DNA from: a virus
Lineage: Duplodnaviria; Caudoviricetes
Direction: 5' to 3' (one strand)
DNA length: 64,000 nt
IMG/VR virus record: IMGVR_UViG_3300028833_005988
Coordinates: 16,004 to 80,003 of that record
The number at the start of each line of letters is the position of its first letter. The stretch's first letter is position 1. The notes under the pieces were generated by a model that worked only from the letters and a program-made list of their open reading frames with translations, searched no databases and was not told the origin of the DNA. The position numbers and the translations under genes are program-made. Below are positions 20,962 to 63,606 of this stretch, one piece after another.

Positions 20962-20964
20962 CAA

Positions 20965-31736: not shown

Positions 31737-31741
31737 GGAGG

Positions 31742-37018: not shown

Positions 37019-37037
37019 CTGAAGGGGATGATGAACA

Positions 37038-42890: not shown

Positions 42891-43358
42891 ATGACCATGA
42901 ATTTGCAATCCATGTTGCAGGAGCGCAATATGTCCATGTATCACTTGTCGCGGATCAGTGGTATACCCAAGACAACCGTGATTGATATTTGTTCCGGGAA
43001 AAGCGCCATTGAAGGCTGCACCGCGAAAACGGTTTGGCGTTTATCGCAGGCGTTGGGATGCACGATGGAAGATTTGATGAAAATAGACACAGCACATTAT
43101 GATCCAAAGAGCGGTTTGCCAAAAAGTGACGCTTATCTGGAAAGGGGTCTGCCCGACTATCTTCAAAAATCCATTGCGGCCATGAAAGAATCCTGGCGGT
43201 TGATTGATCAGGGCAAGCAGGATTTACATTGGGATATTTGCTGGAGCGATTTGAATGCTGATATTAACAGCGCAGAAATAGAACAGGAAATATCCGCAGA
43301 TCAAGCCTGGTATCTGCGCAGGAAGTATTTGCGAATGGAAAAGGATGATGAAACATGA
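42891..43358 (+). CDS. XRE-type HTH protein, probable antitoxin
   Basis: SMYHLSRISGIPKTTVIDICSGK; overlaps start of kinase gene. Confidence 0.8.
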   Translation: MTMNLQSMLQERNMSMYHLSRISGIPKTTVIDICSGKSAIEGCTAKTVWRLSQALGCTMEDLMKIDTAHYDPKSGLPKSDAYLERGLPDYLQKSIAAMKESWRLIDQGKQDLHWDICWSDLNADINSAEIEQEISADQAWYLRRKYLRMEKDDET

Positions 43359-44245: not shown

Positions 44246-44643
44246 GATAGCTTCTTAAGGCTGGCCCAATGCGCGGTCAGCCTTTTTGATTAGGACAATT
44301 CACTCTTTAGCGCATTTTCCCACCTCCTTCTTTGATGAATTGCTCCTGCTTTCCCGTTCTTCCTGCTACCGGATTGCTTCTTTAGTTGACCGTGCCAAAA
44401 GCTGCTCCAATTCCTTTTTCGGCGCTTTCAAGCTGTTCCTCGATGGACTGCTTTCCATCTGCTGCTTTTGTTTTTAACGCATCGTGTATGACCTTTCGCA
44501 CCCAATAGCGAATCAACATTAACATGGACAAATGCAGCTATTTTCCACTTCTGGCCTACAAGGATTCAGAGAATCCGCCTTCCGCGCAAACGCTGCGGGA
44601 TGCTGTGGATGTGCTGACATTGTAAAGAAAAGAGACGAACTGC

Positions 44644-44910
44644 ATGGATTTGATCAACGACGGCATTCTGTGGCAGCATATTGTTCAGCAGATTTAAAAC
44701 GGCTGTACCGCAGGCCACGGAGCAAAGTTTCACATCTGGACGGACGGCGATATGCTGCTAGTGGACGATGAATGCGCCGCTGAGACCATTGCGGATTTTC
44801 TGGAGATCATGGGTTTCGACACCTGCACCAGATACTATGATCCGAAGGAAGATCGGGAAAGCGGCACAGTCAATGAGTATACCAGCTGGCACTATATCAA
44901 TATTGAATAA
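44644..44910 (+). pseudogene. Small hypothetical gene with in-frame TAA at 44695
   Basis: Frame reads protein-like on both sides of the TAA (…IWTDGDMLLVDDECAAETIADFLE…). Confidence 0.45.
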
Positions 44911-44934
44911 ATCGCCAAGAAAGGAGGAAGGCAA

Positions 44935-45237
44935 ATGCCCATCACACAGGCACAATTATGGAAGCTCAGACTGGAGATCGTGCTGAACTCTCTTTACTAT
45001 AGCGACTACGAAAACTCCCTGGGACTGAATCGCAGGATCGTCTCCGTGTTCTTCTATGGATTCCTGGAGTTTGTGGACGAAGAAATGAAGGAGGATATTG
45101 CCGGCTTTACGGACAACGACTTTTTCCGCCATCTTCCGGCCTATGATAATTCAGAATACCTGTGGCAGTATTTCTGCGGCTTTGAGGAAGTGCTGCCCGG
45201 CTGCTATCCGGCAGGGGAGGAAGAATCGGCAGCATAA
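44935..45237 (+). CDS. Hypothetical protein
   Basis: RBS AGGAGG; IVLNSLYYSDYEN segment. Confidence 0.7.
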   Translation: MPITQAQLWKLRLEIVLNSLYYSDYENSLGLNRRIVSVFFYGFLEFVDEEMKEDIAGFTDNDFFRHLPAYDNSEYLWQYFCGFEEVLPGCYPAGEEESAA

Positions 45238-45313
45238 CTTCTCCTTTTGCAGACACACACCGCACACGCGGCTCTCAACCATGGGAGCCGCTTTTTCGCG
45301 CAAAGGAGGCAGT

Positions 45314-45928
45314 ATGGTTCACGATCATGTGCATATTTCCTATGGCGTTTCCAAGCTGGGTGCGGATATTCCTTCCGTCAATTTACCTGTGGGCTGCACC
45401 TGCCGGAAGGACGCGCCGTGCTTCAAGAAATGTTATGCCCGCCGGGGACGGTTCAGCTTTCAGCGGAACCGCGCTCACCTGCAAACCAACCTGGAGCTTT
45501 GGTACTGCAATCCTCAATTTTTCGAGCAGGAGGTGACCATCGCCGCATTCCGTTCCCGTTTCTTCCGCTGGCACTCCTCCGGCGACATCCCGGACGCGGA
45601 TTATCTGGCCATGATGGTACGGATCGCCCGGAACCTGCATAACACCCGGTTTCTGTGCTTTACCAAAAAATATGAACTTGTAAATGCTTATATTTCGGAG
45701 CATGGCTCATTCCCCGATAACCTGACCGTCGTTCTCAGCGTTTGGGGCACTTTTCAGCCGGAAAACCCTTATCATCTTCCTCTGGCGCATATCCAATTTC
45801 GGAAGGAAGATGCAACTATCCCGGAAAACGCCCGCCCTTGCCCATCCTACTGTGGCGATTGCGTTGCCACTGGCATGAGCTGCTGGGATTTAAAACGCGA
45901 AGAAGCAGTTGTATTCCATGAACATTAA
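45314..45928 (+). CDS. Gp88-like phage protein
   Basis: C...C...CYA motif and FRWHSSGD...TK motif. Confidence 0.7.
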   Translation: MVHDHVHISYGVSKLGADIPSVNLPVGCTCRKDAPCFKKCYARRGRFSFQRNRAHLQTNLELWYCNPQFFEQEVTIAAFRSRFFRWHSSGDIPDADYLAMMVRIARNLHNTRFLCFTKKYELVNAYISEHGSFPDNLTVVLSVWGTFQPENPYHLPLAHIQFRKEDATIPENARPCPSYCGDCVATGMSCWDLKREEAVVFHEH

Positions 45929-46133
45929 CGAAAGAGAGATGCCAATGAATAAAAACGTTCTTGTGACCTCGGACCGGTATCTGGAGCAGTTCTTCTATGC
46001 GCACCGGATTTCTTTTATCCGGCAATATTACGAGAAGGGCCTCACGCACTGGGTATATCCAGCCACACTGCGGTTGCTTGATGTTCTTCGGGAGTATCTG
46101 CAGCTCTCGCAGGTAGAAGGAGGCGCGGTATGA
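45909..46133 (+). CDS. Small hypothetical protein
   Basis: ORF bridging two genes, overlapping stop/start. Confidence 0.55.
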   Translation: MYSMNINEREMPMNKNVLVTSDRYLEQFFYAHRISFIRQYYEKGLTHWVYPATLRLLDVLREYLQLSQVEGGAV

Positions 46134-47080
46134 CCGTTCAGGATTTGATTGCGTTCTTTGAAGCACATGTGGCAGCGGAAGAAGGGCGGCCTGCCACTAT
46201 AGAGCAGTACGGTTCATTTCTGCGGCGATTTGACCGCTATTTACAGGATCAGCATAAGCTGAGCCTGAAGCCGGAGGATATCGGCCGCATCAAGGGCCTG
46301 CACCTTTCAGCCTATTTGCAGGAATTGGCTGCCAAAGACAGGGCGGTCAGCACCCGGAACAACTATATCGTCATTTTGAAACGTTTCTTTTTCTACATGA
46401 AAGGAATCGGCGTGATAAAAAAAGATCCCTCCCAGGTTCTCCACTGTGTGAAAGAAAAAAAGACACCGGAAGTCCTCGAAAAGCAGGCTCAGAAGCGCTA
46501 CACCGCTGAAGAAATCAAAACGCTGATCGAGGCAGTATCCGGTCCACACCCTAAGCATAATGATTTGCGTGACGCCGCTATTATCGCCCTGATCCTGGGC
46601 AGCGGCCTGCGAGCATTTGAGGTCTGTGCCTTGAACATCGGCCAAATGGAGGAAATACGGCAGGGCGACCTGTTCTGCCTACGCAAAAGGGGCAACTGGG
46701 CGCACGTCAGCGTCGCGGACTTCGTGGCTCCTTGCATTGACCGGTATCTGGCCGGACGGAAGGACACGAAGCCGGATGATCCGCTGTTCCTGTCCCAAAA
46801 AGGAAACCGGCTGGATCGGAAAACACTGTGGAAATCTCTTGCGGTCAAGCAGCAGCGTCTGAACCTGAAAACAGGAGTGCATATCTTTCGCCATACCCTG
46901 CTGACCGCTGTAGATCAGGTGGGCGGCTCCGCCATGGCTCGTGACATTGGTGGACATTCTACCGTATATGTCACCAACCGTTATGTTCATACCAGCATGG
47001 AAGAGAGGCAGCAGGCCGTCAATGATACGTCCTTTGCGGAAACGATTATGGAGTCGCTTCCGAAGAAACGGGCTTCATGA
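46130..47080 (+). CDS. Tyrosine recombinase (XerC/D-like)
   Basis: Catalytic R (GLRAFE), K (RKRG), HxxR (HIFRH), H (GGHS), Y (TNRYVH). Confidence 0.92.
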   Translation: MTVQDLIAFFEAHVAAEEGRPATIEQYGSFLRRFDRYLQDQHKLSLKPEDIGRIKGLHLSAYLQELAAKDRAVSTRNNYIVILKRFFFYMKGIGVIKKDPSQVLHCVKEKKTPEVLEKQAQKRYTAEEIKTLIEAVSGPHPKHNDLRDAAIIALILGSGLRAFEVCALNIGQMEEIRQGDLFCLRKRGNWAHVSVADFVAPCIDRYLAGRKDTKPDDPLFLSQKGNRLDRKTLWKSLAVKQQRLNLKTGVHIFRHTLLTAVDQVGGSAMARDIGGHSTVYVTNRYVHTSMEERQQAVNDTSFAETIMESLPKKRAS

Positions 47081-47143
47081 TAGGAAAATGAACGAACCGC
47101 CGCAGATATTCTTTCTGCGGCGGCACTTTGATTGATCATGATG

Positions 47144-47695
47144 TCACTGCTTCAGCTTCAAACCGTCATGAAATGCTTTTCCGACGATTTCGCCTACCAC
47201 TCGGTATGCGTTGGCGGCAGGGTCGAAGATAATGGGACGCAGTTTGCCCAGATCCACCTTGCCGTCGTTGAGGATAGATTCGTCCGCTTGGGAGGCCACG
47301 ATCTCGCCGATGAGATAGCCCGTTTCCGGATTCCAGGAACGCACCTTGCACTCCAGGGTCAGCGGATATTCCTCAATGATCGGCGCATTGACATAAGCGC
47401 TCTTGTGAACATGACAACCGGCTTTTTCAATCTTATTGATCTTTTTTCCAGTTTCCACACCAAAGTAGTCGGAAATCAAGACGGTGTCTGCTGTGCCAAA
47501 TGCAACGGTGAACGCCCCGGTTTTTTCAAAGTTTTCGGTAGTCTTGTGTTTAGACAGCATCAGGGTGATTTCACCCATGTCGCTCTGCATACCCCAGGCC
47601 GCATTCATGGCGTTGGGAGTACCGTTTTCATCATATGTGCCAATAATGAAAACGCCTTCTGGGGTAATGATGGCATGCTTTCCTTCGATTTCCAT
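47144..47695 (-). CDS. Flavin reductase family protein
   Basis: PNAMNAAWG, TTENFEKTGAFTV, APIIEEYPLTLECKV. Confidence 0.9.
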   Translation of the reverse strand: MEIEGKHAIITPEGVFIIGTYDENGTPNAMNAAWGMQSDMGEITLMLSKHKTTENFEKTGAFTVAFGTADTVLISDYFGVETGKKINKIEKAGCHVHKSAYVNAPIIEEYPLTLECKVRSWNPETGYLIGEIVASQADESILNDGKVDLGKLRPIIFDPAANAYRVVGEIVGKAFHDGLKLKQ

Positions 47696-47708
47696 GAATC
47701 TGGCTCCT

Positions 47709-47987
47709 TTACTTTTTTTCTACAGCGTCTTTCATGGCTTTGCCAGGCTTGAATGCAGGAGCTTTCTTCGCGGCGATCTTGATTTTTTCGCCAGTGCGGG
47801 GATTGCGCGCTTCGCGGGCGGTCTTACTCCGTACCTCAAAGGAACCAAAACCGGGAATGATGACTTTACCTTCTTTGACAAGTCCTTCAATGATGGCATC
47901 CAGGGTCGCGTTGACGACCGAGTCAGCTTCTTTCTTAGTGATTTCCGCTTTGGAGGATACCGTTTCGATGAGTTCCCGTTTGTTCAT
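47709..47987 (-). CDS. hup: DNA-binding protein HU
   Basis: MNKRELI...GFGSFEV...ARNPRTGEKIKI...PAFKPGK. Confidence 0.95.
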   Translation of the reverse strand: MNKRELIETVSSKAEITKKEADSVVNATLDAIIEGLVKEGKVIIPGFGSFEVRSKTAREARNPRTGEKIKIAAKKAPAFKPGKAMKDAVEKK

Positions 47988-48019: not shown

Positions 48020-48478
48020 TTACCACAGTTCGATACTGCCGGTTTCTTCACCTTTGACCCAGTAGGCTTTGTTCTCGTCTACACGGATATAAATCTTATC
48101 CGCAGCCCCGATCTTGGCGATGATTTCTTCCGGTGTAATGGTTCCACCAAGTGGAGACTGGATAATGATTTCGGTTTTCGGCGATTGCGCGGGTGCGTTT
48201 TTTTCAGCCTTTGCCTTGCTTGTGCGCTTTGCTTTGGTCTTGGATTCCGCAGGCGCGTCAGCCTTTGGCGCCTTTGCCTTCTTTGCAGGCTTGAGAGCCA
48301 AATCCACGTTATAGACTTCCTTGATCTTTCCCAATACCTTTTCGCTCGGATTCACCCGGCCCGCTTCATAGGCGGTCACGGAGGCTGTGCTTACGCCAAT
48401 CGTTTTTGCGAAGGCAGCTTGAGACAGTTTCTGTGCGGTACGAAGTTCTTTAATTGTCGGAATCTTCTTCGGCATGAA
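48020..48478 (-). CDS. XRE-family repressor, divergent from the replication operon
   Basis: IKELRTAQKLSQAAFAKTIGVSTASVTAYEAG; Lys/Ala-rich linker. Confidence 0.88.
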   Translation of the reverse strand, partial: FMPKKIPTIKELRTAQKLSQAAFAKTIGVSTASVTAYEAGRVNPSEKVLGKIKEVYNVDLALKPAKKAKAPKADAPAESKTKAKRTSKAKAEKNAPAQSPKTEIIIQSPLGGTITPEEIIAKIGAADKIYIRVDENKAYWVKGEETGSIELW

Positions 48479-48796
48479 TGTCATCCTCCCTTTATTCTTT
48501 TGACTTCATTATACATAAAGCATTTAAGAATTACAAGGAAAATGTATTTCTTAATCAGTTGTTTGAGGGGGTATGGCATTTTTTTCGTATTGGATACATG
48601 AATAGCATAGTATACAGACGCTCTCACTGTGAAAAAAGTTCCCCATTGTTTCGTCCTTTCCGTCTCGTTATAATAATGCGCATCCGGCACAAAGAACGAG
48701 TGTTACTCACAAAATTATTTCTATTGGAGGAGCAAGTTTTGGCCAAAATGGTATCTCTTATATAATGAAAACCAAAATGAAAGGGAGGAATCGACA

Positions 48797-49831
48797 GTGG
48801 CTATTCAAATAGTCAAAGCAAAACGGCAGTTGGCGCGCCTCAAGATTGGAGTGGCTGGTAGTTCCGGCAGTGGAAAAACATAGAGCACGCTGCTCATGGG
48901 TTTCGGTTAGATTCAGGCAGTACATCCTAGCATCTCCAATGAAGCGGCTTGGGAGAAAATCTGCGTTATCGACACGGAAAACGGTTCTGGTAGCCTGTAT
49001 GTTGGCACTGTGGTAAGCAGTACCCGTATCGGGGAGTACCTGACCATCGCTCTGGACGCTCCGTTCAGCGCGGCCCGATATCTAGAGGCTATTGAAGCGG
49101 CAGAGAATGCTGGGGTGGAATTTTTGATTATTGATTCCCTGTCACACGCCTGGTCCGGTGAGGGCGGTCTGCTGGATATGCAAGCGAACATCGCCAAACG
49201 CAGCGGCAACGGCTATACCGCCTGGCGGGATGTAACTCCGCTGCATAATAAGCTGGTGGACAAGATCCTGCAATGTCCCATGCACGTGGCGGCCACCCTG
49301 CGCACCAAGACGGAATATGTGATCGAGGACAACGGACAGGGTAAAAAAGCACCCCGCAAGGTGGGTATGGCCCCCATTTTCAGAGAAGGGCTAGAATATG
49401 AGTTCAGCGTGTTCTTTGAACTGGCTCAGGATCATTCCGCGGCAGCCACGAAGGATCGTACCGGCCTGTTTGATGGTCAATACTTCGTGATCACCCCAGA
49501 CACTGGCGCGAAAATCGCGGGCTGGCTGGGCGACGCGGAAAAGAACGCAGCCGCATCGGCAGCGGAAAGGCCGCAGGTGAAGCAACAAAGCCTGGAGCCT
49601 TCTGAACCGTCTCCTGAACCGCCTTCTTCGGATGGAGAGGATACCCAGACCCTGGCTGAAAAGGTAGACATGGTGATGAAAGCCTGCTGCACCGATATTA
49701 CTCAGGAGGAAAGAGAGAAGATCGCCCAGCGGATACGGGCAATTACCGGAGGTACAGCAAACTATCGGGCGATTACTGACAAAAGGATTCTTCAAGCAAT
49801 CTACGATGAATTCAAGGAGGAAACAGTATGA
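48797..49831 (+). CDS. AAA_24-like phage ATPase; 2 in-frame TAG (48881, 48908)
   Basis: Walker A GSSGSGKT*S, VIDTENGS, IIDSLSHAW; frame continuous through both TAGs. Confidence 0.88.
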
Positions 49832-50193
49832 GTGTAAATAAGCTGACCGCAGTTGGACGATTGACGGCAGATCCTGTTTTATCCCAATTCGGTGATGCTT
49901 CCTGCGCGACCTTTACATAGGCATCGGATACACGCACCAAGGATGTGAACGGAGATAATATCACAAATTTCTATCGTTGCAATACCTGGCGCAGAATGTC
50001 TGAAGTAGCCATGCAGTATTTACATAAGGGTGACAAAATTACTGTGGTCGGCGACTTGACCATTCGGCAGTATAAAGATAAAAACGGTATGGATCGAACT
50101 GCTGTACAGATCAATGTCACAGATTTAGAATTGCCAGCCCATAAAACACAGACTACCAATGGCAGTTCTCAAGAAGATGATTTGCCTATTTAA
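49828..50193 (+). CDS. ssb: Single-stranded DNA-binding protein; 1 in-frame TAG (49918)
   Basis: VGRLTADP, ATFT*A, YLHKGDKITVVGDL, acidic tail EDDLPI. Confidence 0.92.
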
Positions 50194-50206
50194 GGGGGAC
50201 AAACAG

Positions 50207-50761
50207 ATGAAGCTCACTGCAGAACAAGAAACTCAATTCTTGAATGAGCATGAGAAAAAGATCTGTGATTTTGTCAATCGTTACCAGCGAAAAGCCGGAA
50301 AAAGGTATCCTGACAATACAGAAGATCTTCTACAGGAGGCCAGATAGGCGCTGTTGCTTCTGCTGCGAAATGCAGATAGTTTAGCGGAAGCAGAGCATTA
50401 CTACATCCATGTGACGCATGCTTTATATGAGTATGTGCGCAGAATGGCGGCAGTTAAAATCCCACAAAAGAAGTTTAAGATGGAAATCCGCAATATATTT
50501 CTTTTCTCCCTGGATGTATTCGAATTTGATGCAACATCGTCTTCTTTTGAAGATATGATTATCGGCAATATAGATTATGAACGCTTTTTGAGTTGCTTAT
50601 TACCTTTGGACGCAAAGATGCTGTCTATGAGGATGAAAGGTAGTTCATAGAAAAAAATTGCCAATGCTGTGGGATTATGCGAAAGTCAGGTATGTCGCCG
50701 TATTCATCGTTTAGGCAATCAGTATCGCTGCTTTATGGAAGGCTGTTGCTGTGCAGGCTGA
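50207..50761 (+). CDS. Sigma-70-like factor; 2 in-frame TAG (50345, 50648)
   Basis: EDLLQEAR*ALL (region 2); KGSS*KKIANAVGLCESQV (region 4 HTH). Confidence 0.75.
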
Positions 50762-52541
50762 CATCCTTCGGTTTGCCGCCGTGCACTTGGCTCCTTACCG
50801 GGTGCGCGGGGATGAACTCATCCCGGATTACTGCCCCTTCTGTCACGGCGGCGACAGCGGCGACCGATACACCTTCGCCCTGAACCTGACGGACGGCGTG
50901 TATGTGTGCAAACGGGGCGGATGCGGCGTCAAAGGCCGGTATGAAGAACTGGCAGCCCATTTTGGCGAGTGGGCGGAGTTTCTCCGCCCCGCCGCCTCCG
51001 CCAAAAGGCAGTTCATTCTGCCGGAAGTGGAAATAAAGCCCCTGACCACGGAAATAATTCAGTATTTTGAAAAGCGGAGAATCACCAAAGAAACCTTGGA
51101 CGCGTTTCACATCGGCGCGGACGAAAAAGGAAACATCGTTTTCCCCTTCTTCCGGGACAGCACATAGGAATATGTGAAATACCGGGCGCCGCGCACACCC
51201 CAGCCCAAGGAGAAAAAGGAATGGCAATGTTCCAACACACGCCCCATCCTGTTCGGGATGGATCTATGTTCCTTTTCCCACCCCCTGATCATCACAGAAG
51301 GCCAGATCGACACGCTCTCTCTTTATGAAGCAGGCGTCTGTAATGCCGTGTCCGTTCCAAGCGGCTGCACCAATCTGGATTGGATCGACCATTGCTGGGA
51401 CTGGCTGGAGAAGTTCCAAACGATCATTCTGTTCGGGGACAGCGATGAACCGGGCAAAAAAATGGTGCGTGAGGTGGTTCGGCGGCTGGATGAAGCACGG
51501 TGTATGGTGGTAGAGGAATACCCAGACAAGCCGGACGGCACACCCTGCAAGGACGCCAACGAAATCCTGTTCTATTATGGGCCGGAAACGCTTCAGGAGA
51601 CCTTGGACGCCGCTCAGCCGGTGCCTGTCAAGGGAATCATTCAGTAGTCGGATGTGGTTCCTTACGACCCTACCACCGTTCCACGAATCAAAACCATGAT
51701 CCCGGCGCTGGATGAATAGATCGGCGGATAGGCGGAAGGGGCAATGACGGTGTTCACCGGCAAGCCCGGCCAGGGCAAGTCAACGGTCACGGGACAGCTG
51801 CTTCTGGCTGCTATCGAGCAGGGCTATTCCGTCTGCGCTTACAGTGGCGAGCTGACCAAGGAAAAATTTTAGGAGTGGATTAGTCTCCAGGCAGCAGGTT
51901 CGGAGTATATCGGCCTTCGCTATGATCCCGTGCGCGGCATCAAAATCCCGACCGTGCCGTATGCCGTACAAGAGCGATAGACGGATTACTATCGGGATAA
52001 GTTTTATCTATTCGACAACCAGGAAATCTTTGAGGTCAACCAATCGGAAAGCATCCTGAAGGTTTTCCAGATGGCGGCGCGGAGATACGGCTGCAAGCTG
52101 TTCCTGGCGGATAACCTGATGACCGCCCTGTCCGATTCCGACGAGGAAACCAAGGCCCAGGGCAAGTTTGCCAACGCGCTCAAAAAGTTCGCCACCCGGT
52201 ATCATGTGCATGTGCTGCTGGTGGCCCATCCCCGCAAGGTGAAGCAGGGAGAAAAGCTTGGCCAGGACGACATCGGCGGCAGCAGCGCCACCATCCGTTA
52301 GGCGGACAGCGCCATCGTGGTGGAGCGGCCCAACCTGCGGGTGCTGAAAAACCGGGAGGGCGGGATATGCAGGCTGATCGAGTGCTGCTACTGCCCGGAC
52401 AGTCGCAGGATCTATCAGGCAGACAAGGGCGATAAGAACCGTTTTTCCTGGAATAAGGACGGTATTGTGCCGCCGAATCCCCGGGCGGACAGTTTGCCGG
52501 AGTATTCAGTACAGATGGCAGAGGTGATACAACCGTTTTAA
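50751..52541 (+). CDS. T7 gp4/Twinkle-like primase-helicase; 7 in-frame TAG (51165, 51645, 51717, 51729, 51870, 51978, 52299)
   Basis: Zn finger CPFC...CKRGGC; TOPRIM ITEGQIDTLS, DSDEPG; Walker A GKPGQGKST; ADNLM, VAHPRK, DIGGS. Confidence 0.9.
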
Positions 52542-53326
52542 TGGAGGGAAGCAAGTGCATCATTCCAAATGATATGAAATGGTCGTTCAGCAAATAGCAG
52601 TTGTTTTCTCAATGCCCCTTGGCTTTCAAGCTGCAGTATATCGACCATGTTTCCCAGGAGCAGAACAGCTACGCGGAGTACGGTACGCATTGCCACAGCC
52701 TGCTGGAGCGCTGGGCCAAAGGGGAACTCTTGTCCTTTGAACTGGCGGACAGGTATGAAGCGGAGTACGACGAAGCGGTCAGGCATTACTTCCCGCCCTT
52801 TCCCCAGGGCCTGGCCGGAAAATACTTTGAGGAAGGGAAGCAGTATTTTCTGTCCTTCGACGGCTTCGGAGAAAACATGGAAATCCTGTCCGTGGAGGAA
52901 AAGTTTGAACTGGATATCCGGGGAAATCCATTTGTGGGCATCGCTGATCTGGTGCTGCGGGACAAGCAGGATGGCGGCATTATCGTCATCGACCACAAAT
53001 CCAAGTCCATGCAGTCTATGAAAAAGGAACTGTTCGCCAATACTCGGCAATTGTACACCTATGCCGCGTATGTGAAGGAACGGTTCGGAGAATACCCGGC
53101 TATGCTGCGGTTCAATATGTTCCGCTACGGCACCTTCATCGATGAGCCCTTTTCCATGGAGCGATACCAGGAAACCATGGACTGGATCGATACGACCATC
53201 CAGGCCATCAAGAACGAAAAGGATTGGCGTGTGTCCACCTCCGGCTATTTCTGCCGCTTCATCTGCTCCACCCGCCTGCATTGTCCTGTGGGGGAAGAAA
53301 TCATTCATTCCGAAATAAAGGAGTAA
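52541..53326 (+). CDS. PD-(D/E)XK nuclease; 1 in-frame TAG (52595)
   Basis: WSFSK*QLFSQCP, GTHCHSLLE, GIADL, VIDHKS, QLYTYA, CRFICS. Confidence 0.88.
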
Positions 53327-53332
53327 TCCGCT

Positions 53333-56300
53333 ATGACGCTTTAGGAAAAGGGTATTCCTTATGTGAATTATCACCGGCATTCCTGTTACAGCAACGTCAT
53401 GCTGACAGACAGCGTAGTCACCAATGAAGACTACGCCAAGCGGGCGGTAGAATTGGGGCATACCATTCTTTCCTCCTGCGAGCACGGCACCCAAGGCAAC
53501 TACTGGCAATGCTCCGAACTGGCAAAGAAGTACGATCTGCACTGGCGGTATGTGAGCGAAGCCTATTTTGTAAAGGACAGGCGTGAAAAGGATAACGCCA
53601 ACTGCCATATTATCCTGGCTGCCAAGACGAGAAAGGGCATCGGCGATCTGAATTTCGCCCTGTCCGAAGCCAACATTAGCGGATATTACTATCGGCCCCG
53701 GGTCGATCTGGAATTACTGCTGTCCCTGGATTCGCAGGACGTTTTTGTGACCACGGCCTGCATCGCCGGGGTGTTCAAATACGGCTGGGAGGAGGCGGAA
53801 CGCCTGATCCTCCGCTTCGCAAAGCACTTTCGGGGCAGCTTCATGTAGGAAGTACAGTATCACGACACGGATAAGCAGCGGGAGGTCAACCAATTCCTGC
53901 TGGGCTTGTACAGAAAGCACGGGATTCCCCTCATCATGGGAACCGACAGCCATTATATCCATCCGCGGGACGCAGAACTTCGGCAGCAGCGGTTGGAAGC
54001 CAACCACATTCTGTATGAGGACGAAGGCGGCTGGTATATGGATTATCCCTCCGGAGCAGAAGCGTTTCAGCGCTTTCAGCGGCAGGGCGTTCTTTCCGAC
54101 GCGCAAATCCGGGAGGCCATGGAGAATACCTGCATCTTTGAATCCTTTGAGGATGTGGAATTCGACAAGAGCAAAAAGCTGCCCACCATCTATCCTGAGC
54201 TGACACAGGAGGAACGGAACCATAAGTATCTCGATCTGGTGAACGCCGCCTTTGAGCAGCAGACTGCTGGCATGACGGAGGAAGAAAAAAGTGTCCGTGC
54301 GGAAGGCGTGAAATACGAAACGGATGTGGTCACCTCCACCGGCATGAGCGATTATTTCCTGTTGGATCACGAGCTGGTGTGCCGCGCCGTAAAAAAAGGC
54401 GGCATCATCACCAAAACGGGACGCGGCAGCGCGCCCAGCTACTATACCAACTCCCTGCTGGGCCTGTCCTCCATTGACCGCTTCGCCATCCCTGTGGAAA
54501 TGTTCCCGGATCGGTTCATTTCGGCGGACAGAATCGTATCCGGCAGCCTGCCGGACATCGACATGAACGTAGCCAACCGGGAAGCCTTTGAGGAAGCCCA
54601 GGCGGAAGTACTGGGCGAATGGAGAAGCGCGCCTATGGTGGCTTTCGGTACCCTGAAACGGCTCTCCGCCTGGAAAATGTACTGCCGGGCCTCCAATCTT
54701 TCCTTCGATGTCGCCAACAGCATCGGGGATAAACTGAAAGCCTATGAAACAGCGGTCAGATACGCGGAGGACGGTGAGGAAATTGCGCTTTCCGACTACA
54801 TCCCAGAAGAATATCGGGAATAGGTCGCCGCCAGCGAGCAGTACATGGGTGTGATCGATTCCATTTCCCCACATCCCTGCGCCTATCTGCTCTGCCGGGA
54901 AGATATTCGTCGGGAAATCGGGATCATCCGCATCAACAGCAAGGGAGCCAAGAAAAAGACTGTCTACGCCGCCTTTATCGACGGCGCAACGGCGGAACAG
55001 TTCGGATATCTAAAGAATGACCTGCTCCTGGTGGAAGTTGTTAAAACCAACCATGAGGCATTTAAGCGCATTGGGACGGAGCAGCCGGATGTGAACGAGC
55101 TTTTGCGGCTCACAGCCCAGGATAAGGAGACGTGGCGTATGTACGCGGAAGGATTGACCATGGGGCTGAATCAGGTGGAACAGCCGAAAACACGGGAAAA
55201 GGTGATGCAGTACAAACCCAGGAACATCACCGAGCTGGCGTCCTTTGTGGCAGCGGTACGCCCTGCGTTCAAATCCATGCTGCCCATCTTTCTGGCCCGG
55301 AGGCATTTTGACTATGGCATCCCCGCTTTTGACGCTTTGATCCAAACAAGAGAGATGTCGTCCAGCTTCATTCTGTTCCAGGAGCAACTGATGAAAACGC
55401 TTCAGCATGCCGGGTTTTCATCCCCTGAATCCTACGCGGCCATCAAGGCGATTGGGAAAAAACATCCGGAGAAGGTACTGCCGCTGAAGCAGCGTTTTCT
55501 GGAAAAGTTCTCAGAGAAAAGTGATCCTGATGCGGCAGAAAAGGTCTGGAAGATCATTGAAGACGCGACTTCGTATGGGTTTAACAGTTCTCATGCTGTC
55601 TGCGTCGCTCTGGACAGTCTGTACGGCGCTTGGCTGAAAGCTCATCATCCTTTGGAATACTACACCACCCTTCTCACCGGCTATGCCGCCAAGGGAGACA
55701 AAGACCGCATCTCTCTTGCCAAGGAAGAAATGCGGAAGGGCTTCGGCATCCGCGTGGTCCCCTGCAAATTCCGGCAGGACAATCGGGACTTCTATATTGA
55801 CTACGAAGAACGAACGATCTCTGACGCATAGACGTCGGTAAAGCACATAAGCCGCAAGGCTGCGGAAGCGCTCTACGCTATGCGGGACGGATTCTATGCC
55901 TGCTTTACCGATCTGCTGTATGATATGGAGCTTCATCCTGCCTTGGATTCCCAGGTGGTCGAAATCCTGATCCGGCTGGACTATTTTCGGGAGTTCGGTT
56001 CCAACGGAAAGCTATAGAAGTTATTAAGGGAGTTCCGGGAAGGGGAAGCCCACTTTTCCAAAACCCATATTCCCAGGACCCAGGAGGCGCGGCTGCGCGT
56101 TCTTCGCGGGATCGAGAGAAGTCTGCCGGAGGAAACCATTCCGCCTTATGAGCAGGCGCGTTTTGAAATCGACCACTGCGGTACGCCGCTCACCTTGTTT
56201 CCGGCATTAAAGTTTGAATACGCCGTTATAGATGTGGATGATCGGTACAGCCCCAAGCTGAAGCTGTGCAGCCTCTCCACTGGACATACGGGCGTGATGA

Positions 56301-56461
56301 AGCTGAAAAAGGCGCTGTTTCAGCAAAAACCCATTGAAGAAGGCGCCATCCTCCGCCTGATCGCCTGGAACCGAAAACCGGCGTATCAGTTTCTCGACGG
56401 GAAAGCCAAGCCAAGATCCGACATGTTCGACCTGTGGATCACCGATTATGAACTGATCTGA
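53333..56461 (+). CDS. dnaE: DNA polymerase III alpha subunit; 5 in-frame TAG (53342, 53846, 54821, 55829, 56015)
   Basis: PHP YHRHS, CEHG, GTDSHY; GRGSA, PDIDM, HPCAY, LKNDLL, YGFNSSHA. Start 53333 has RBS AAGGAG (alternative GTG 53363). Confidence 0.92.
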
Positions 56462-56497
56462 TGATCCGTCCGGCCAGCGTTTTTCTGGCCGGTACAG

Positions 56498-56582
56498 GGG
56501 AGCATGGCGGAACTGGCAGACGCGGAGGTCTCTAAAACCTTTGCTTTACGGCGTGCGGGTTCAAATCCCGCTGCTCCCACCA
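56498..56582 (+). tRNA. tRNA-Leu-type body with CUA anticodon (reads UAG)
   Basis: Acceptor GGGAGCA/TGCTCCC, discriminator A and encoded CCA; D-arm GCGGAACTGGCAGACGC; anticodon arm GAGGT-CTCTAAA-ACCTT (CTA at 56532-56534); extended variable arm; T-arm GCGGG-TTCAAAT-CCCGC. Confidence 0.93.
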
Positions 56583-56623
56583 TCGCGCTTCATGCGCAGA
56601 AAAGCTTGTAAAGGAGGCGGATC

Positions 56624-56938
56624 ATGAATACGATTCCCTTACGATTCATCCATGCCGGTTTCGGCCATGTGGTATGCGCCAATCGGGTTTCCATGGTACT
56701 CAATCCCCAAACCGCCAGCGCCCGGCGATAGATTAGGGCCGCAAAAGAGGCAAAACCCTCCAGATTTGTGGATATGACCTTTGGCCGAGCCACAAAGAGC
56801 GTCTTACTGTTGGACGACGGAGCCGTGATTGGTTGCGGATTGACCTACCGCACCATAATGTCGCGGCTGAACGGCGATGCCCCATTGGAAGCGGAAGCAG
56901 AACCGATCCTGGGCACAGAAGCGGAGAATGCGGAATGA
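56624..56938 (+). CDS. RemA/DUF370-like protein; 1 in-frame TAG (56729)
   Basis: GFGHVVCANRV...SARR*IRAAKE...DMTFGRATKSVLLLDDGAVI. Confidence 0.75.
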
Positions 56939-57573
56939 AAATCATTCAGCAGTCCGCCCGTATCCTCACCCCGGAGGATGGAATGCAGGTGCTGCGGCAG
57001 ATTGAGCAGGCTGGCCGCAACTGTTACCGTTCTGAAAGAAAGATCACAGAGGACAGCGCGCCGCGTTTTGTGGCCGCACTGTTGAAACGAGGCCACCTTT
57101 CGCCTGTGGAGTTTGCCGATATGAGCGTGGAGTAGGTCACTTCCCGGGATGTGATGGCGGAACTCACCCGGCATCGATTGGCCAGCTTCTGCATTGAGAG
57201 CCAGCGGTATGTAAACATGAATGGAGAAATCGCCTTCATCCAGCCGATATTTTATCGGGAAGGTTCTTGGGCCTCCGGGCTCTGGTGGAAGTGCATGAAG
57301 GATGCAGAAAAAATCTACCATGATATGCTGGCACACGGCATCAAGCCCGAGGACGCCAGGAAGGTATAGCCCAATTCCACCGCTGTCCGCATCATCATGA
57401 AGGCCAACCTGCGGGAGTGGCTGCACATCTTCACGCTCCGAACCGATCCGGCAGCTTATCCTGAAATGCGGACATAGATGGCGCTACTGCTGCGGCAGGC
57501 CAGGGAAAGGATCCCCTTGATATTTGACGGAATAACAATCCCGGACGGAAAGGACGAAAACCATGAGAATTGA
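56935..57573 (+). CDS. thyX: Flavin-dependent thymidylate synthase; 3 in-frame TAG (57133, 57367, 57475)
   Basis: GHLSPVEF, ELTRHRLASFCIESQRY (RHRx7SxR), ARKV*PN, NLREWLH, EMR. Confidence 0.92.
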
Positions 57574-59440
57574 TAAGTATACCGATCATAACCGGCATTA
57601 GAGCTTCATTGACCGCTACGGTAGGGCGTCTAACGCTGCAACCAGCAGCGAAACGGATCCCAATGCCAATGTGGAAAGCAAGAACATCGCCACCATGGAA
57701 ACGGAAATCTATAAGGCGGACGCCATCGCCATCAATCGTCTGGGCATGTACCGGAAACTGCAGGAGATGTACGGCACCAACACCGCGGAAGAATATTTGC
57801 GGCAGCTGGAAGAGCATGAAATCTACCGGCATGACGAAGTGGGCATTTTGGGCAAACCCTACTGTGCCAGCGTGACGCTCTATCCCTTCCTTTTCTATGG
57901 AAACACCTGCATCGGCGGCACCAGCGAAGCGCCCAAGAATCTCTCTTCCTTCTGCGGCGCGTTCATCAACCTGGTATTCGCTTAGGCCAGCCAGTTCTGC
58001 GGGGCCATTTCCACGCCGGAGTTCCTCTGCTACATGGATTATTTCATCCGCAAAGAGTATGGCGACGACTATTACCAACGTTCAGATGAGGTCGTAGATT
58101 TATCCACTCGCCACCGCACCCTTGATAAGGTGATTACCGACGCCTTTGAGCAGGTGGTGTACTCCATCAATCAGCCTGCCGCCGCCCGCGGGAATCAGTC
58201 CTGCTTCTGGAATATCGCCTATTTTGACCAGCCGTACTTCCATGGGATGTTTGAAGATTTTGTGTTCCCGGACGGTACGAAGATGCGCTGGGACTCTGTC
58301 TCCTGGCTGCAAAAGCGTTTCATGCGCTGGTTCAATCAGGAACGGAAGCGCAAGCTGCTGACTTTCCCGGTGGAAACGGTGAACCTGCTGGACAACGGCG
58401 AGGATTTCGTAGATCAGGAATGGGCGGACTTTGTAGCAAAGATGTGGGCGGAGGGACACAGCTTTTTCGTGTACCGCTCTGATTCGGTGGATTCGTTAGC
58501 ATCCTGCTGTCGTCTTAGAAATGAAATGCAGGATAACACCTTCTCCTACACGTTAGGCGCCGGCGGAGTCGCCACAGGCAGCAAATGCGTCATGTCCATC
58601 AACGTGAACCGCCTAGTGCAAAATGCCGTTTGGGACAATGGCTTGGAGGATGTGCGTGAAGCGATGTCGGAGATGGTGGAGAAGGTTCATAGGTATTTGC
58701 TGGCTTTCAATGCGATCCTGAAGGAACGTCAGGCCGCCGGGTTGCTGCCGGTCTACGACGCGGGTTTCGTCTCCCCGGAAAAACAGTACCTGACCATTGG
58801 TGTGAATGGCTTTATCGAAGGCGCTGAAGCGCTGGGGATCGAGATCGACGCGGACAATCCACAGTATATTGCCTATGCCGAAGCGGTGTTGCAGCCGATC
58901 TACGAAGCAAACCGAAAGGACCGGCAGGAGGGGATCATGTGGAACACGGAAATGGTACCCGCGGAATCCTTGGGCGTAAAGAATGCTGCTTGGGATAAGG
59001 CGGACAAGCTGTTTGTTCCGCGAGACTGCTACAACTGTTATTTCTTCCGGGTAGAGGATCCCAAGGTCAATGTGCTGGATAAATTAAAGCTTCACGGACG
59101 CGCCTTTACCAAGTACCTGGACGGCGGCTCGGCCTGCCACATCAATCTGGATGAGCATTTGACCAAGGAACAGTACGTCCTGCTGCTGAAAGCCGCTGTT
59201 CGCACCGGCTGTAATTACCTGACCTTCAACATTCCCAACACGCTCTGCAAAAAGTGCGGGTATATCAGCAAGCACCGCTTGGATGAATGCCCCAAATGCC
59301 ACAGCCGGAGCCTGGATTACGCCACGCGGGTCATTGGGTATCTGAAGCTGGTGTCCCGGTTTGCGGAAGCGAGGCAGGAGGAAGAACATCAGCGGTACTA
59401 CGCAAGCAGCCTGGAGGGCGCCCATGGGCAAGGTGATTAA
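57563..59440 (+). CDS. nrdD: Anaerobic ribonucleoside-triphosphate reductase; 2 in-frame TAG (57599, 57983)
   Basis: PYCASVT, EMVPAESLG, YLDGGSACH, CKKC...CPKC, glycyl-radical loop TRVIGYL. Confidence 0.93.
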
Positions 59441-59621
59441 GAACCCGGATGAGGTCTTTTATAAGAACCTCAAGCGGCGCATCAAGCAAAACAACGGCTA
59501 TTGCCCCAACAAGCCGCGCCACGTCCCGGAAAACAAATGCCCGTGTCAGGCGTTCCGGGAGGGGAAGAGCTGCGACTGCGGGCAGTACATCGAATAGCCG
59601 GAGGATGTGACGGTATGCTGA
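59424..59621 (+). CDS. Ferredoxin-thioredoxin reductase catalytic subunit-like small protein (ends 59597 if TAG is a stop)
   Basis: GYCP...KCPC...CDCG motif. Confidence 0.6.
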
Positions 59622-59860
59622 TCTGTACGGAATGCGGGCGGACATTTGAACGGCCCCAGGAGGCTGTAGAACAGCATGGGCTGGACACGCCGCCCTACGA
59701 AAAAATCAGCATGTGTCCCTTCTGCGGCGGAGTGAGTCTGCGCAACGCATATCCCTGCTCCATTTGCGGCGGTTGGATCACCGGCAGCCACATCATCACG
59801 CTGGACGGGCAGCGCATCTGCGATGGCTGCTATATCCGCTATGAGGGGCCGGATGACTGA
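59615..59860 (+). CDS. Cys-rich Zn-finger hypothetical protein
   Basis: Four CxxC pairs (CTEC, CPFC, CSIC, CDGC). Confidence 0.65.
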   Translation: MLICTECGRTFERPQEAVEQHGLDTPPYEKISMCPFCGGVSLRNAYPCSICGGWITGSHIITLDGQRICDGCYIRYEGPDD

Positions 59861-60341
59861 AACGCCCCTGCGGTACATGGAATACGCCGTGACGCTGGCG
59901 GAGGCGCCGAAGGAGGTCAGCCTGACCATCGCTGTTTCCAACTGCGTCTTCCGCTGCTCCGGCTGCCATTCGCCCTATTTGTGGGAGGACAAGGGAGAAC
60001 TGCTGCTGCCGGCCCTGCCGGGACTGATTCGCAGGTATAAGGGGCTTATCTCCTGCGTGTGCTTCATGGGCGAAGGCCAGAATCCATCGGAATAGCGGCA
60101 GGCGCTGACGACAGTGCGGGAACACGGCTTGAAAACCTGCCTGTACAGCGGCTGCGACAGCATTCAGCCGTTTGTGCCGCTGCTTTCGCTGCTGGATTAC
60201 CTGAAAATCGGTCACTATGATGAAAAGATGGGCGGGCTGGACAGCGGGACGACAAATCAGCGGTTTTACCGCGTGGAAAATGGACAACTGATCGACGAAA
60301 CCGAGCAATTTCAGAGGAGGAAAGAGGAACATGACGCCTGA
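59853..60341 (+). CDS. nrdG: Anaerobic RNR activating enzyme; 1 in-frame TAG (60093)
   Basis: CVFRCSGCHS radical-SAM motif, FMGE, LYSG, LKIGHY, TTNQRFY. Confidence 0.9.
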
Positions 60342-60978
60342 CGAATACAAAGCGAAATACGGAGACACGGTCATCATGGGTATCGAGGCCAAATGGGTGG
60401 ACGGGCTATAGGTGGAGGGATACAATCCCAAAATCCTGGAGCCGGACGAGGATGGAAACGAGTACTGTGCGCTGCTGGAAGTGATTGAACAGCATTTGAT
60501 CAGTATGCCGCGCTGGAAAGCGGAAACCGATCTCACCTTCAAGCAGGTCATTCCCTATGTGATCGTGGAGCACCGTCCCACCGGACACATTTACATGACC
60601 ACCCGGATCGGCGGGGATGATCGGCTGAAAGGGCAGCACAGCATTGGCCTTGGCGGGCACATGGATGAGGACGAAAGGATTCTGGATACCCTTTACCGGG
60701 AACTGGAAGAAGAAGTGGGACTTCACCGGGACGACATCGCCGATATTTCGCTCTGCGGTTTTCTGTCCAGCACCATGACGGAGGTGGACAGCGTTCATTT
60801 AGGCCTGATCTACCATATCACCACGAACCGGGAGGATATTTCCTGTCTGGAAAAAGACAAGCTGATGGGCGACTGGTTCACGGTGGAGCAGTTACAGGAA
60901 GCCAGAAAAGCGGGCCACATGGAATCCTGGAGTACGATTTGCTTTGACAGCCTGCTGAGAGGGGAGGCGACCGAATAA
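60331..60978 (+). CDS. NUDIX-family phosphoesterase; 1 in-frame TAG (60409)
   Basis: KQVIPY, SIGLGGHM, RELEEEVG, VHLGL, MESWS. Confidence 0.85.
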
Positions 60979-61298
60979 TGCCCATCATCACCGGCGTTCA
61001 GCCCGATGCGCCTACCGTGGTCAACGAAAGAGGCGGCGCACAGTCCGCCACACCCTATGCCTTTCACTTCCTGCCGCCCAACGCCATGTTTGCCGCGGCG
61101 GAAACGGCCAAATACGGCGCGGAAAAGTATCACGAGTCTCTTCAGGATCGGAACTACAAGAAAATCCCGACCGAGGAACATGTGAACCACGCTATCCAGC
61201 ACCTGTACGCTTATTTGGCCGGAGATCAGACAGACGATCATCTGGCTCACGCCATCCTGCGGGCCATGTTCGCCTATGAAACGGCGTATGAGCAATAA
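60978..61298 (+). CDS. dATP/dGTP diphosphohydrolase-like (DUF5664) protein
   Basis: KYGAEKY...NY...HAIQHL...DHLAHA. Confidence 0.75.
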   Translation: MPIITGVQPDAPTVVNERGGAQSATPYAFHFLPPNAMFAAAETAKYGAEKYHESLQDRNYKKIPTEEHVNHAIQHLYAYLAGDQTDDHLAHAILRAMFAYETAYEQ

Positions 61299-61794
61299 AT
61301 TGCAAAAATCATCAAAATCTCTCCGCCTCCTCTGCGCCGATCTCTCCTTGCGCTGTCCCGGTTTTGCCGTCCTGCGGTATGAGAGCGGGAAAATCACCGT
61401 GGAAAGGCTGTGCCACCTGAACCATCGCGAGCAGAATTGCTGTCATGGCGAAATTTTGGCGGCTATCTATGATATGATCACGGAGCTTTCCGCTGATGTG
61501 GCCGTATTCGTGCGGGAAAAGGGCTTCTCCCGATTCCCGCACGAAACCCAGGTTCTTTTCAAGGTGGTAGGTATCGTTGACCTGGCCGCGTGGCGGCAGT
61601 GCAAAACGCAGTTTGAGGAAATCGCGCCGACCACCGTGAAAAAACTGCTGACCGGATCGGGGAAAGCCAGCAAGGAGGAGGTTGCCGCCGCATAGGAGCA
61701 GTACGTGGGAAAACAGGATTACGCCACCAATGACGAGAGCGACGCTGTTGCCGTGGGGGTGGCGTGGCTACGGTCACATAGATATATTGAATGA
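61288..61794 (+). CDS. ruvC: RuvC-like Holliday junction resolvase; 1 in-frame TAG (61693)
   Basis: ADLS, VRE, VKKLLTGSGKASKEEV; catalytic DESDAVAV lies after the TAG. Confidence 0.88.
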
Positions 61795-62028
61795 ATATGA
61801 GGTTATATTCCTCTGTAATTTCAATAGGAACATAGCCTTTTTCGCATGCGCGAAATCGAAAGGAAGGATGAAGATTGAACATCATACAAACCACAACAAC
61901 AGAAGCTTATCTGGAAGAAAAGCCGCATGTCCGTCTGCATTTCACGCAGTCGCCGCAGCCTGACATCGTTAATCGGATTTAGGGAATATAGATAAGAGAT
62001 ACATTATCCATGATGGAAGGAGGAGCTG

Positions 62029-63606
62029 ATGATGAAACGAGTATTATGCCTGTACAGGGTATCAACAATCGGGCAGGTTGACCATGACGATATTCCCATG
62101 CAGCGGATCGCGTGCAGGGAGTTTATCGCGCAGCACCCTGACTGGGAATTGGTTGATGAGGTGTCTGAGAAGGGTGTATCCGGCTACAAGACCAAAACTG
62201 CGGATCGGGATGCACTGGCTCAAATTAAGGCAAAAGCGTTGGCCAAAAAGTTTGATATCCTGCTTGTGTTCATGTTTGACCGTATTGGACGGCGTGATGA
62301 CGAAACGCCATTCGTGGTTCAATGGTTTGTAGAAAACGGAATTGAGGTCTGGAGCACCAAAGAGGGCGAGCAACGTTTTGATACCCATGTGGATAAGCTG
62401 CTGAACTATATTCGCTTCTGGCAGGCATCCGGTGAAAGTGAAAAGACCTCTCTGAGAATACGTACCAAGCATTTGCAAATGATACAGGAAGGCTTATACA
62501 GAGGCGGATTGGTTCCCTATGGGTATCGGCTTGAACATCAGGGACGGGTGAACAAGAAGAATCAACCGGTACGCGACCTGGTAATTGATGAAAAAGAAAG
62601 CCTTATTGTACAGGAAGTATTCCACAAAATTACTTCTGATGGTTGGGGAACGAATAGAATCGCCAACTGGCTGAATGCGCGAGGTATCCCTACAAAACAT
62701 GGGGACAGTTTTTGGCGGGGCACCTCGGTTCGTGCGGTAATACGGAATCCGATTTATACCGGCAGAATTCGCTTTGGTGATGATCTGTCCGAACCTTTTG
62801 AGCACTTGCGTTTGATTGATGACGCCTTATTTGAACAGTGCGACAGGTTAGTGAGAGAAAAAGCGCCACGGATGTCCAGTAAACGCACCTCTGCCCTCCG
62901 CAGTACAAGCAGAGGCTTATTGACTGGTGTCTTGTATTGCGGTACCTGTGGGGAAAGAATGTGCTTTAACCATAACAGGACGATACACTCTCTTGCAGAT
63001 GGAACAAAAAAATGCTATGAAAGAGATGTCTACCGTTGCTATCGGAAGATCAGTGACCGCAAAGGATGTACAGGGCGTTCCACGTATTCCGTTGAACGGA
63101 TCGAAGGGGATGTGCTGGATGCCATAAGGACTTTTTTTGAAAGAATCAAGTCCGCACCGACGCAGGTGATGCTACATTCTGCAGGCAGCAGAGCAAAAAC
63201 CATTAACGAGGAGGCACTTGCGAGGGCAGAGGCTGCGTTAAAAAAAGCGCAGTCTGAAATGACCGCGCTTGAAGAAGAAGCCGTTAAAGCGCTGACGGGC
63301 GAAAGCAAAATGGACGTTACTTTTATCAACACTCTGATTCCCAAACGCCGCGCCAACCTGGAAAAAGCAATGGCCGAAGTGGAGAGTATTCGAACGGAAA
63401 TCGAGAATGAAGCAAAGACGGATGCAATGCACAAACGGGAGCTTCAGATGATCCTAACCTGGGCAGAAACGTTTGAAACGGCACCGTTGGATACGAAACG
63501 TACTATCATCTCAGCAATGATCGAAAGGATCATTGTAAATAACGATTATTCTCTGGATATTCAGTTCAGAATGAGCATGAATCAGTTTATGGGAAAGGCT
63601 GCATAG
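62029..63606 (+). CDS. Large serine recombinase (integrase)
   Basis: YRVST catalytic Ser, DRIGR, recombinase domain GLVPYGY, Zn ribbon CGTC...YRC, coiled coil; ends in TAG. Confidence 0.95.
   Translation: MMKRVLCLYRVSTIGQVDHDDIPMQRIACREFIAQHPDWELVDEVSEKGVSGYKTKTADRDALAQIKAKALAKKFDILLVFMFDRIGRRDDETPFVVQWFVENGIEVWSTKEGEQRFDTHVDKLLNYIRFWQASGESEKTSLRIRTKHLQMIQEGLYRGGLVPYGYRLEHQGRVNKKNQPVRDLVIDEKESLIVQEVFHKITSDGWGTNRIANWLNARGIPTKHGDSFWRGTSVRAVIRNPIYTGRIRFGDDLSEPFEHLRLIDDALFEQCDRLVREKAPRMSSKRTSALRSTSRGLLTGVLYCGTCGERMCFNHNRTIHSLADGTKKCYERDVYRCYRKISDRKGCTGRSTYSVERIEGDVLDAIRTFFERIKSAPTQVMLHSAGSRAKTINEEALARAEAALKKAQSEMTALEEEAVKALTGESKMDVTFINTLIPKRRANLEKAMAEVESIRTEIENEAKTDAMHKRELQMILTWAETFETAPLDTKRTIISAMIERIIVNNDYSLDIQFRMSMNQFMGKAA

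Follow-up and report, generated by a model that had tools for sequence, protein, structure and literature searches.

Leucine as the probable reading of TAG in a clade of temperate gut phages with a suppressor tRNA of their own

How can a phage make its replication proteins when their genes are interrupted by TAG, a codon at which its bacterial host would stop? This question is raised by IMG/VR record IMGVR_UViG_3300028833_005988 (Duplodnaviria; Caudoviricetes), a provirus record of 80,003 bp with an estimated completeness of 69%, of which positions 16,004 to 80,003 were analysed as one stretch of 64,000 nucleotides, here called the window (positions are those of the window unless stated otherwise). 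Terminase, portal and integrase genes identify the element as a phage or prophage. We regard it as highly probable that it is a large temperate phage of rumen or gut Clostridia with a DnaE-type replication module, in which a phage-encoded suppressor derived from tRNA-Leu reads TAG as leucine in competition with the host's release factor 1 (RF1); this suppressor is likely to form part of a feed-forward lock on lytic genes.

Interrupted genes and the residue at TAG

Called with translation table 11, the region 48797-61794 is fragmented; reading through TAG turns it into one tightly coupled operon, which runs on the plus strand and starts opposite the gene of an XRE-family protein. An earlier, sequence-only reading of this region counted 27 in-frame TAGs in 12 genes, and its count was reproduced exactly for each gene. 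In order, these encode an AAA_24 ATPase (48797..49831, TAG at 48881 and 48908), SSB (49828..50193, TAG at 49918), a sigma-factor-like protein (50207..50761, TAG at 50345 and 50648), a Toprim primase-DnaB-type helicase (50751..52541, its start being approximate, TAG at 51165, 51645, 51717, 51729, 51870, 51978 and 52299), a PD-(D/E)XK nuclease (52541..53326, TAG at 52595), DnaE, the DNA polymerase III alpha subunit (53333..56461, TAG at 53342, 53846, 54821, 55829 and 56015), a RemA-like protein (56624..56938, TAG at 56729), ThyX (56935..57573, TAG at 57133, 57367 and 57475), NrdD (57563..59440, TAG at 57599 and 57983), an NrdG-like radical SAM activase (59853..60341, TAG at 60093), a NUDIX hydrolase (60331..60978, TAG at 60409) and RuvC (61276..61794, TAG at 61693). 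The assignments come from Pfam, apart from those of the sigma-factor-like protein (PHROG 1740) and of NrdG (a weak Fer4_12 match and the position after nrdD). For the primase, an eighth TAG at 50712 is probably outside the gene, ahead of its true start, and three further TAGs are found in two small open reading frames (ORFs) on the same strand, a Cys-rich one (59424..59621, TAG at 59595, close to the 3′ end) and one before the recombinase gene (61875..62081, TAG at 61980 and 61989). The gene of a protein with a dATP/dGTP diphosphohydrolase N-terminal domain (60978..61298, plus strand) is TAG-free here and has one TAG in some relatives.

With TAG read through, all 12 genes are open from end to end; as had been claimed, they contain neither a frameshift nor an internal TAA or TGA, and each of them ends in TAA or TGA. 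Pfam domains run across the TAGs (AAA_24, SSB, Toprim/DnaB, PD-(D/E)XK, DnaE, RemA-like, ThyX, NrdD, NUDIX and RuvC). A search for related elements with the same code, which the sequence-only reading had proposed, found about 30 related loci in metagenome-assembled genomes (MAGs) of rumen Clostridia, in IMG/VR and in metagenomes including one human gut assembly. In the aligned genes of 31 clade loci, the in-frame stop is TAG in 314 cases, TGA in two and TAA in one, that is, a single kind of in-frame stop inside intact, conserved phage genes, which excludes chance and decay. Sequencing error, one of the possibilities that would have undone the earlier reading, is excluded by L002, an independent goat-rumen assembly of about 85% nucleotide identity that has TAG at 22 identical columns.

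Which residue, then, does TAG encode? In the replication genes of the ten first relatives, leucine is found at 88 of the 104 sense codons that face window TAG sites, and reciprocally the relatives' TAGs face a window leucine in 42 of 59 cases; for the virion genes, the corresponding numbers are 174 of 239 and 66 of 83. Since these first relatives are themselves recoded, the test was repeated with relatives that are TAG-free or nearly so. In the nearly TAG-free G008, G011 and G012, leucine stands at 72 of 122 window TAG sites (59%, versus 52% at ordinary leucine codons), glutamine at four (3%) and tyrosine at three. In an outgroup-majority profile, the distinct TAG columns with outgroup coverage hold 37% leucine and 15% isoleucine, as compared to 41% and 17% in leucine-codon columns. 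The profile likelihood calculated from non-recoded outgroups lies below that of leucine by 7 log units for methionine, 18 for isoleucine, 28 for valine, 52 for glutamine, 77 for glutamate and 79 for tyrosine. In solved structures, one TAG of ThyX aligns to the leucine preceding the PN motif, and the PDB comparison places isoleucine at the TAG site of DnaE 172 and valine at that of RuvC 140. The homolog alignment of TAG columns that had been suggested as a check is thus enriched in leucine and, together with the leucine-type CUA tRNA discussed below, it supports the assignment; as judged from these sequences, TAG very likely stands for leucine in this phage.

In the replication and virion modules, the pattern is that of NCBI translation table 16, with TAG aligned to leucine and TAA and TGA as stops. 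The genome-wide form of that code, in which TAG never ends a gene, does not apply, because the serine recombinase gene and a cargo gene for an ECF sigma factor end at TAG. The one-step origin of TAG from TTG that the sequence-only reading had put forward is not supported: in 65 cases in which TAG is present in only one of two closely related loci, the partner codon is CTG, CTT or CTC in 36, CAG in seven and TTG in six.

The suppressor tRNA and the hosts

The gene that would decode TAG lies inside the replication operon itself. Between dnaE and the RemA-like gene, at 56498..56582 (plus strand), ARAGORN and alignment identify a phage-encoded amber suppressor tRNA of 85 nt with anticodon CUA and a tRNA-Leu body; the label "Pyl" that ARAGORN gives it derives from the anticodon alone, and a relaxed ARAGORN run returned only noise. 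The tRNA has a type II variable arm, A14, A15-U48, G18G19, A20a (U at this position in some variants), A73 and an encoded CCA. Its best matches are leucine isoacceptors, and its D arm and variable arm align with leucine tRNAs and not with those for tyrosine, serine or glutamine. An origin by a change of anticodon from CAA to CUA, as the sequence-only reading had it, is not supported: A37 points to a UAA or a CAA parent, and the body shares 66-72% identity with tRNA-Leu(UAA) as against at most 67% with Leu(CAA), such that UAA is slightly closer, by small margins.

Conservation of the tRNA extends to 17 related loci, where it follows dnaE or precedes remA; in 16 of them its place is identical, and in G007 it still directly precedes remA despite approximately 14 kb of DNA inserted between it and dnaE. 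Its stems were judged by covariation across variants rather than from the minimum free energy fold, which is not the full cloverleaf. In 11 variants, the anticodon loop does not vary, all stem pairs form, and both partners have changed in 16 of 23 pairs. Substrates of the E. coli leucyl-tRNA synthetase (LeuRS) are defined by A73, A15-U48, G18G19, A20a and a long variable arm, the anticodon not being needed (PMC9976931), and the phage tRNA carries these determinants. Furthermore, E. coli supP, a leuX tRNA changed from CAA to CUA, is leucylated and suppresses amber codons (PMC7969014). We infer from these features that the host LeuRS would leucylate the phage tRNA.

Evidence on the hosts comes from five MAGs that harbor related prophages, the window's own host not being among them. 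All five have an intact prfA gene, which encodes RF1, and host leuS and rpoC are free of internal stops. Past the terminal TAG of long host genes, the sequence is non-coding, whereas 11 of 14 TAG-ended phage ORFs continue in coding-like sequence. TAG is the rarest stop in these hosts. A search of them for the pyrrolysyl-tRNA synthetase PylRS gave no match above the cut-off, and the pair of PylRS and a tRNA-Pyl body that pyrrolysine calls for was not found. One related prophage shares a 250-kb contig with the leuS gene of its host, and the tRNA pattern occurs in three of 301 genomes of the host family, all of them prophage carriers. Because the hosts keep RF1 and true TAG stops, and because the tRNA is found only in carriers, these genomes assign the code to the phage and not to its host.

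Three other accounts of the TAGs have to be set against leucine. One holds that they encode glutamine (code 15), tyrosine (as with supF), pyrrolysine or a mixture of these. Glutamine does appear in a few columns, and a type II tRNA with A73 and CUA is in principle a possible substrate of the tyrosyl-tRNA synthetase TyrRS. However, the deficits of 52 and 79 log units for glutamine and tyrosine, the rarity of both residues in the nearly TAG-free relatives, the leucine-like D and variable arms and hosts without PylRS make this account very unlikely; glutamine columns in combination with a tRNA-Gln body, which code 15 would bring, were not found. That the host itself has reassigned TAG, with the phage following, draws on the fact that the examined hosts belong to related prophages and use TAG as their rarest stop. 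It is largely refuted, and more improbable still, by the intact RF1, the TAG-free housekeeping genes and the genuine TAG stops of the five MAGs, by a tRNA confined to prophage carriers, and by a phage integrase that itself ends in TAG. Decayed pseudogenes or sequencing errors, finally, would be in keeping with an incomplete provirus record, but conservation across assemblies refutes them and leaves them almost no probability: there are 314 TAGs against three other stops in the clade, independent assemblies hold identical TAGs without frameshifts, and the TAG sites are leucine columns that are mostly not one mutation away from CTG, the commonest leucine codon.

Distribution and placement of TAG

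If TAG is read as leucine, which genes of the phage use it? The sequence-only reading had described a recoded operon for replication and nucleotide metabolism; this operon is indeed recoded, but recoding is not confined to it. The virion module of the prophage (minus strand of contig C1:849-14907, locus L001), which precedes the window and encodes terminase, portal and structural proteins including capsid and tail-tube candidates, carries 40 in-frame TAGs in 18 genes, at leucine columns. The two recoded modules are separated by a cargo region and by an early and accessory block (20328..47987, plus strand, with ArdC, a reverse transcriptase, a tyrosine recombinase, HU and others) that has no in-frame TAG and can be read in the host code. 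Also TAG-free is the gene of the XRE-family helix-turn-helix (HTH) protein (48020..48484, minus strand; Pfam HTH_3), a putative repressor that is divergent from the replication operon. The intergenic region between them (48508..48766) is a candidate lysis/lysogeny switch with two sigma-70-like sites, at 48536-48508 on the minus and 48739-48766 on the plus strand. Altogether, the 34 lytic genes contain 71 TAGs, as against none in 36 early, accessory, repressor-candidate and integrase genes with 763 leucine codons (P=3e-22), and the early genes of relatives are essentially free of TAG as well, with a single one in approximately 14,800 aligned codons.

The integrase, a large serine recombinase (62029..63606, plus strand), closes the record. 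It has no internal TAG and ends at a TAG, past which read-through would add just eight codons before TAA. At 63604-63630, this stop is followed by two further in-frame TAGs at 9-nt intervals and then by TAA. Integrases after ruvC differ among the relatives. Counted from the likely start, six of eight contain no TAG, and a small gene with TAG stands ahead of most of them. In the window, this gene is the small ORF at 61875..62081, which by its position is a candidate excision or directionality factor and had no Pfam or tblastn match. Its counterpart in L002 encodes an HTH_17 excisionase-type protein and has two TAGs.

Within the lytic genes, the placement of TAG looks to be under selection. Only three of the 34 genes lack a TAG, where 7.8 would be expected (P=0.008). 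In the alignments, 27 of 88 TAG columns fall within the first 40 codons, compared to 21 of 302 leucine columns (P=5e-8). The nucleotide after TAG is a purine at 80% of sites, as compared to 60% after CTG or TTG (P=6e-4), and a purine 3′ of TAG is a context that favors suppression. The nuclease gene has its TAG at codon 19 (as in the window), 21 or 31 in 29 of 29 loci, and codon 13 of NrdD is TAG in eight of eight clade loci. Many of the 1,040-residue DnaE genes of the clade contain just one TAG, the major capsid candidate has one in 333 codons, and the terminase has eight in 552.

The mechanism that we propose starts from the phage tRNA, which would be charged with leucine by a host LeuRS that is blind to the anticodon and would read TAG in competition with RF1. 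Genes for replication, nucleotide supply, the virion and probable excision, which carry TAG, would depend on this tRNA; the early genes, the repressor candidate and the integrase would be made without it. In the lysogen, repression would keep the tRNA low, and RF1 would cut leaky lytic products short at TAG. Upon derepression, the same transcript would supply the tRNA, such that full-length lytic proteins could be made. A coherent feed-forward lock of this kind is likely because the tRNA gene sits inside the replication operon, and the low TAG counts per gene fit it because competition by RF1 would penalise many TAGs in one gene. Co-transcription, timing and a regulatory purpose of the system would be in keeping with this layout, and the number of TAGs per gene may tune expression. 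We lean slightly towards a natural suppressor-tRNA feed-forward circuit, in which nearly every lytic gene, the excision factor included, has at least one early TAG, and in which replication, excision and virion assembly would depend on a single leucine tRNA from a repressed operon.

The alternative accepts that TAG is leucine and takes its distribution to be neutral, with TAGs drifting in where the tRNA is present and serving no regulatory function. Early genes are translated before the tRNA exists, which would be enough by itself to explain the partition, and the distant relatives G011 and G012 have a CUA tRNA yet very few TAGs. Drift does not readily account for the fact that TAG number fails to scale with gene length, from one in many DnaE genes to at least one in every nuclease gene, that the nuclease TAG shifts among three codons and is never lost, that TAGs are biased towards the 5′ end, or that unrelated small genes ahead of swapped integrases have them. 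We consider the neutral account possible but rather doubtful.

Several observations weigh against a leucine code with selected placement. Four window sites lack a leucine majority in the relatives, namely DnaE 4 (glutamine), primase 405 (mostly glutamine), sigma 149 (glycine or asparagine) and primase 354 (valine or threonine), and CAG is a frequent partner codon of TAG; two of the four sites would fit recent CAG-to-TAG changes at tolerant positions. The loci are related to each other, so that counts across them overstate their independence, and the early gene set of the partition test was curated by hand. In L003 and G007, the integrase gene contains a TAG in an N-terminal extension that precedes the matched domains, and the DnaE gene of L116 as well as some SSB and sigma genes have none. 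Finally, the sigma-70-like sites in the candidate switch are known only as matches to the consensus, and in the scan for promoters and terminators, shuffled sequences gave at least as many sites.

Relatives, accompanying genes and known systems

In a quick DnaE tree, a branch with support 100 sets the 23 TAG-dense loci apart; next to them come the TAG-sparse relatives, and TAG-free loci lie further out. The nearest cultured phages by DnaE are Tsamsa-like Bacillus phages and Geobacillus virus E3 (39-41% identity), and the aligned genes of uncultured outgroups at a similar distance are free of in-frame TAG. Two more distant relatives have CUA tRNAs with a short variable arm within tRNA clusters (G011:81782-81858 and L054:5790-5863) and few TAGs, and their suppressor may be of separate origin. 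For L054/G012, where the short CUA tRNA had raised the suspicion of a glutamate code, the aligned genes contain two TAGs, one facing leucine and one glutamate. In G009 (L136), with 60% DnaE identity, TAG mostly faces leucine, and there are five TAGs in RuvC and none in DnaE or the primase; no tRNA was found in its 70-kb fragment. Two tyrosine integrases (L003:12682-13959 and L103:641-1919, the latter on the minus strand) have a TAG in an N-terminal extension before the matched domains, possibly giving short and long isoforms controlled by suppression. At L004:18246-20456, an in-frame fusion joins a serine recombinase to the C-terminal domain of SpoVT, which suggests integration into the host spoVT gene.

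The cargo region of the window (1-18800) encodes ECF sigma factors, an SH3/peptidoglycan-binding protein, a PepSY protein and a DDE transposase, and contains two divergent matches to group II intron D1-D4 (7881-8080, minus strand; 8293-8466, plus strand). In the early block, a stand-alone reverse transcriptase (RVT_1, 23694-24932) is kept in G001 (92%) and G007 (71%) and is followed by a non-coding array (25055-26759) in which an 8-nt motif occurs about ten times at a spacing of 140-210 nt. A 185-residue protein with a C-terminal ribosomal protein S17 domain (33732-34289, minus strand; E 7e-26) lies within an AT-rich antisense insert that is absent from G001, the anti-restriction protein ArdC is encoded at 36149-37018, and an HTH and HipA-like kinase pair (42765-44245) is located in an insert that has no counterpart in G001.

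TAG-recoded gut phages and prophages with genetic code 15 are already known, among them crAss-like, Garnet and Topaz phages (Borges et al., bioRxiv 10.1101/2021.08.26.457843; Peters et al., PMC9523058), and in phages that use another code than their host, Borges et al. describe TAG-to-Gln and TGA-to-Trp alone. A jumbo-phage survey from 2026 still assigns TAG to glutamine, and a tool paper of the same year names UAG-to-Pyl as the prokaryotic UAG reassignment. The sequence-only reading was not aware of TAG-to-Leu in a bacterial mobile element, and the literature searched, which leaves out most subscription journals, holds no report of it for any phage or prokaryote. Because phage pipelines rely on nothing but coding density when they assign code 15 (PMC9523058, PMC13037316), the clade would receive the wrong residue or fragmented genes. 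Among the best 120 database matches of NrdD, nearly all lack the N-terminal ~35 residues, as expected if gene calls start after the TAG at codon 13. The clade further implies that GlnRS and TrpRS are not the only host synthetases open to co-option, and it renders the hypothesis that recoding gates lysogeny testable through one 85-nt gene and a sharp code partition; the gradient from TAG-sparse to TAG-dense relatives and the statistical signs of selected TAG placement offer further handles.

The phage resembles the code 15 gut phages in its standard-code host, its in-frame TAGs, its own CUA suppressor tRNA and an integrase without in-frame TAG, and for those phages, too, recoding was proposed as a lysogeny switch. 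Unlike in them, the residue here would be leucine and not glutamine, the replication and nucleotide-supply operon is also recoded and contains the tRNA, GC content is approximately 50% rather than low, and the record, which is 69% complete, yielded no phage release factor. Bacillus phage Tsamsa and its relatives and Geobacillus virus E3 are likewise large Bacillota phages with DnaE, distant ones that were compared by DnaE alone. UAG is leucine in green-algal and chytrid mitochondria, under table 16 and other codes (PMC6551751, PMC6131824), and in the nuclei of phyllopharyngean ciliates, whose suppressor tRNAs resemble Leu(CAA/UAA) tRNAs (PMC11687900). The stops are UAA and UGA in these codes as well; however, they are genome-wide in eukaryotic compartments, whereas here a part of a phage genome would be recoded in a bacterium that still stops at UAG. 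Related in logic are E. coli supP and a synthetic suppressor-tRNA feed-forward "leak dampener", in which tRNA and amber genes under one control make expression less leaky and read-through in the presence of RF1 drops as the number of ambers grows (PMC7969014). The phage would share with them a leucine-inserting amber suppressor charged by host LeuRS and, as far as its layout suggests, the circuit; but those are a laboratory mutant and an engineered circuit, whereas the phage system is natural and conserved, its shared control being deduced from gene order. Thus, with recoded phages, suppressor tRNAs and TAG-free integrases already on record, what would be new here is leucine as the residue of TAG in a phage clade with its own decoder.

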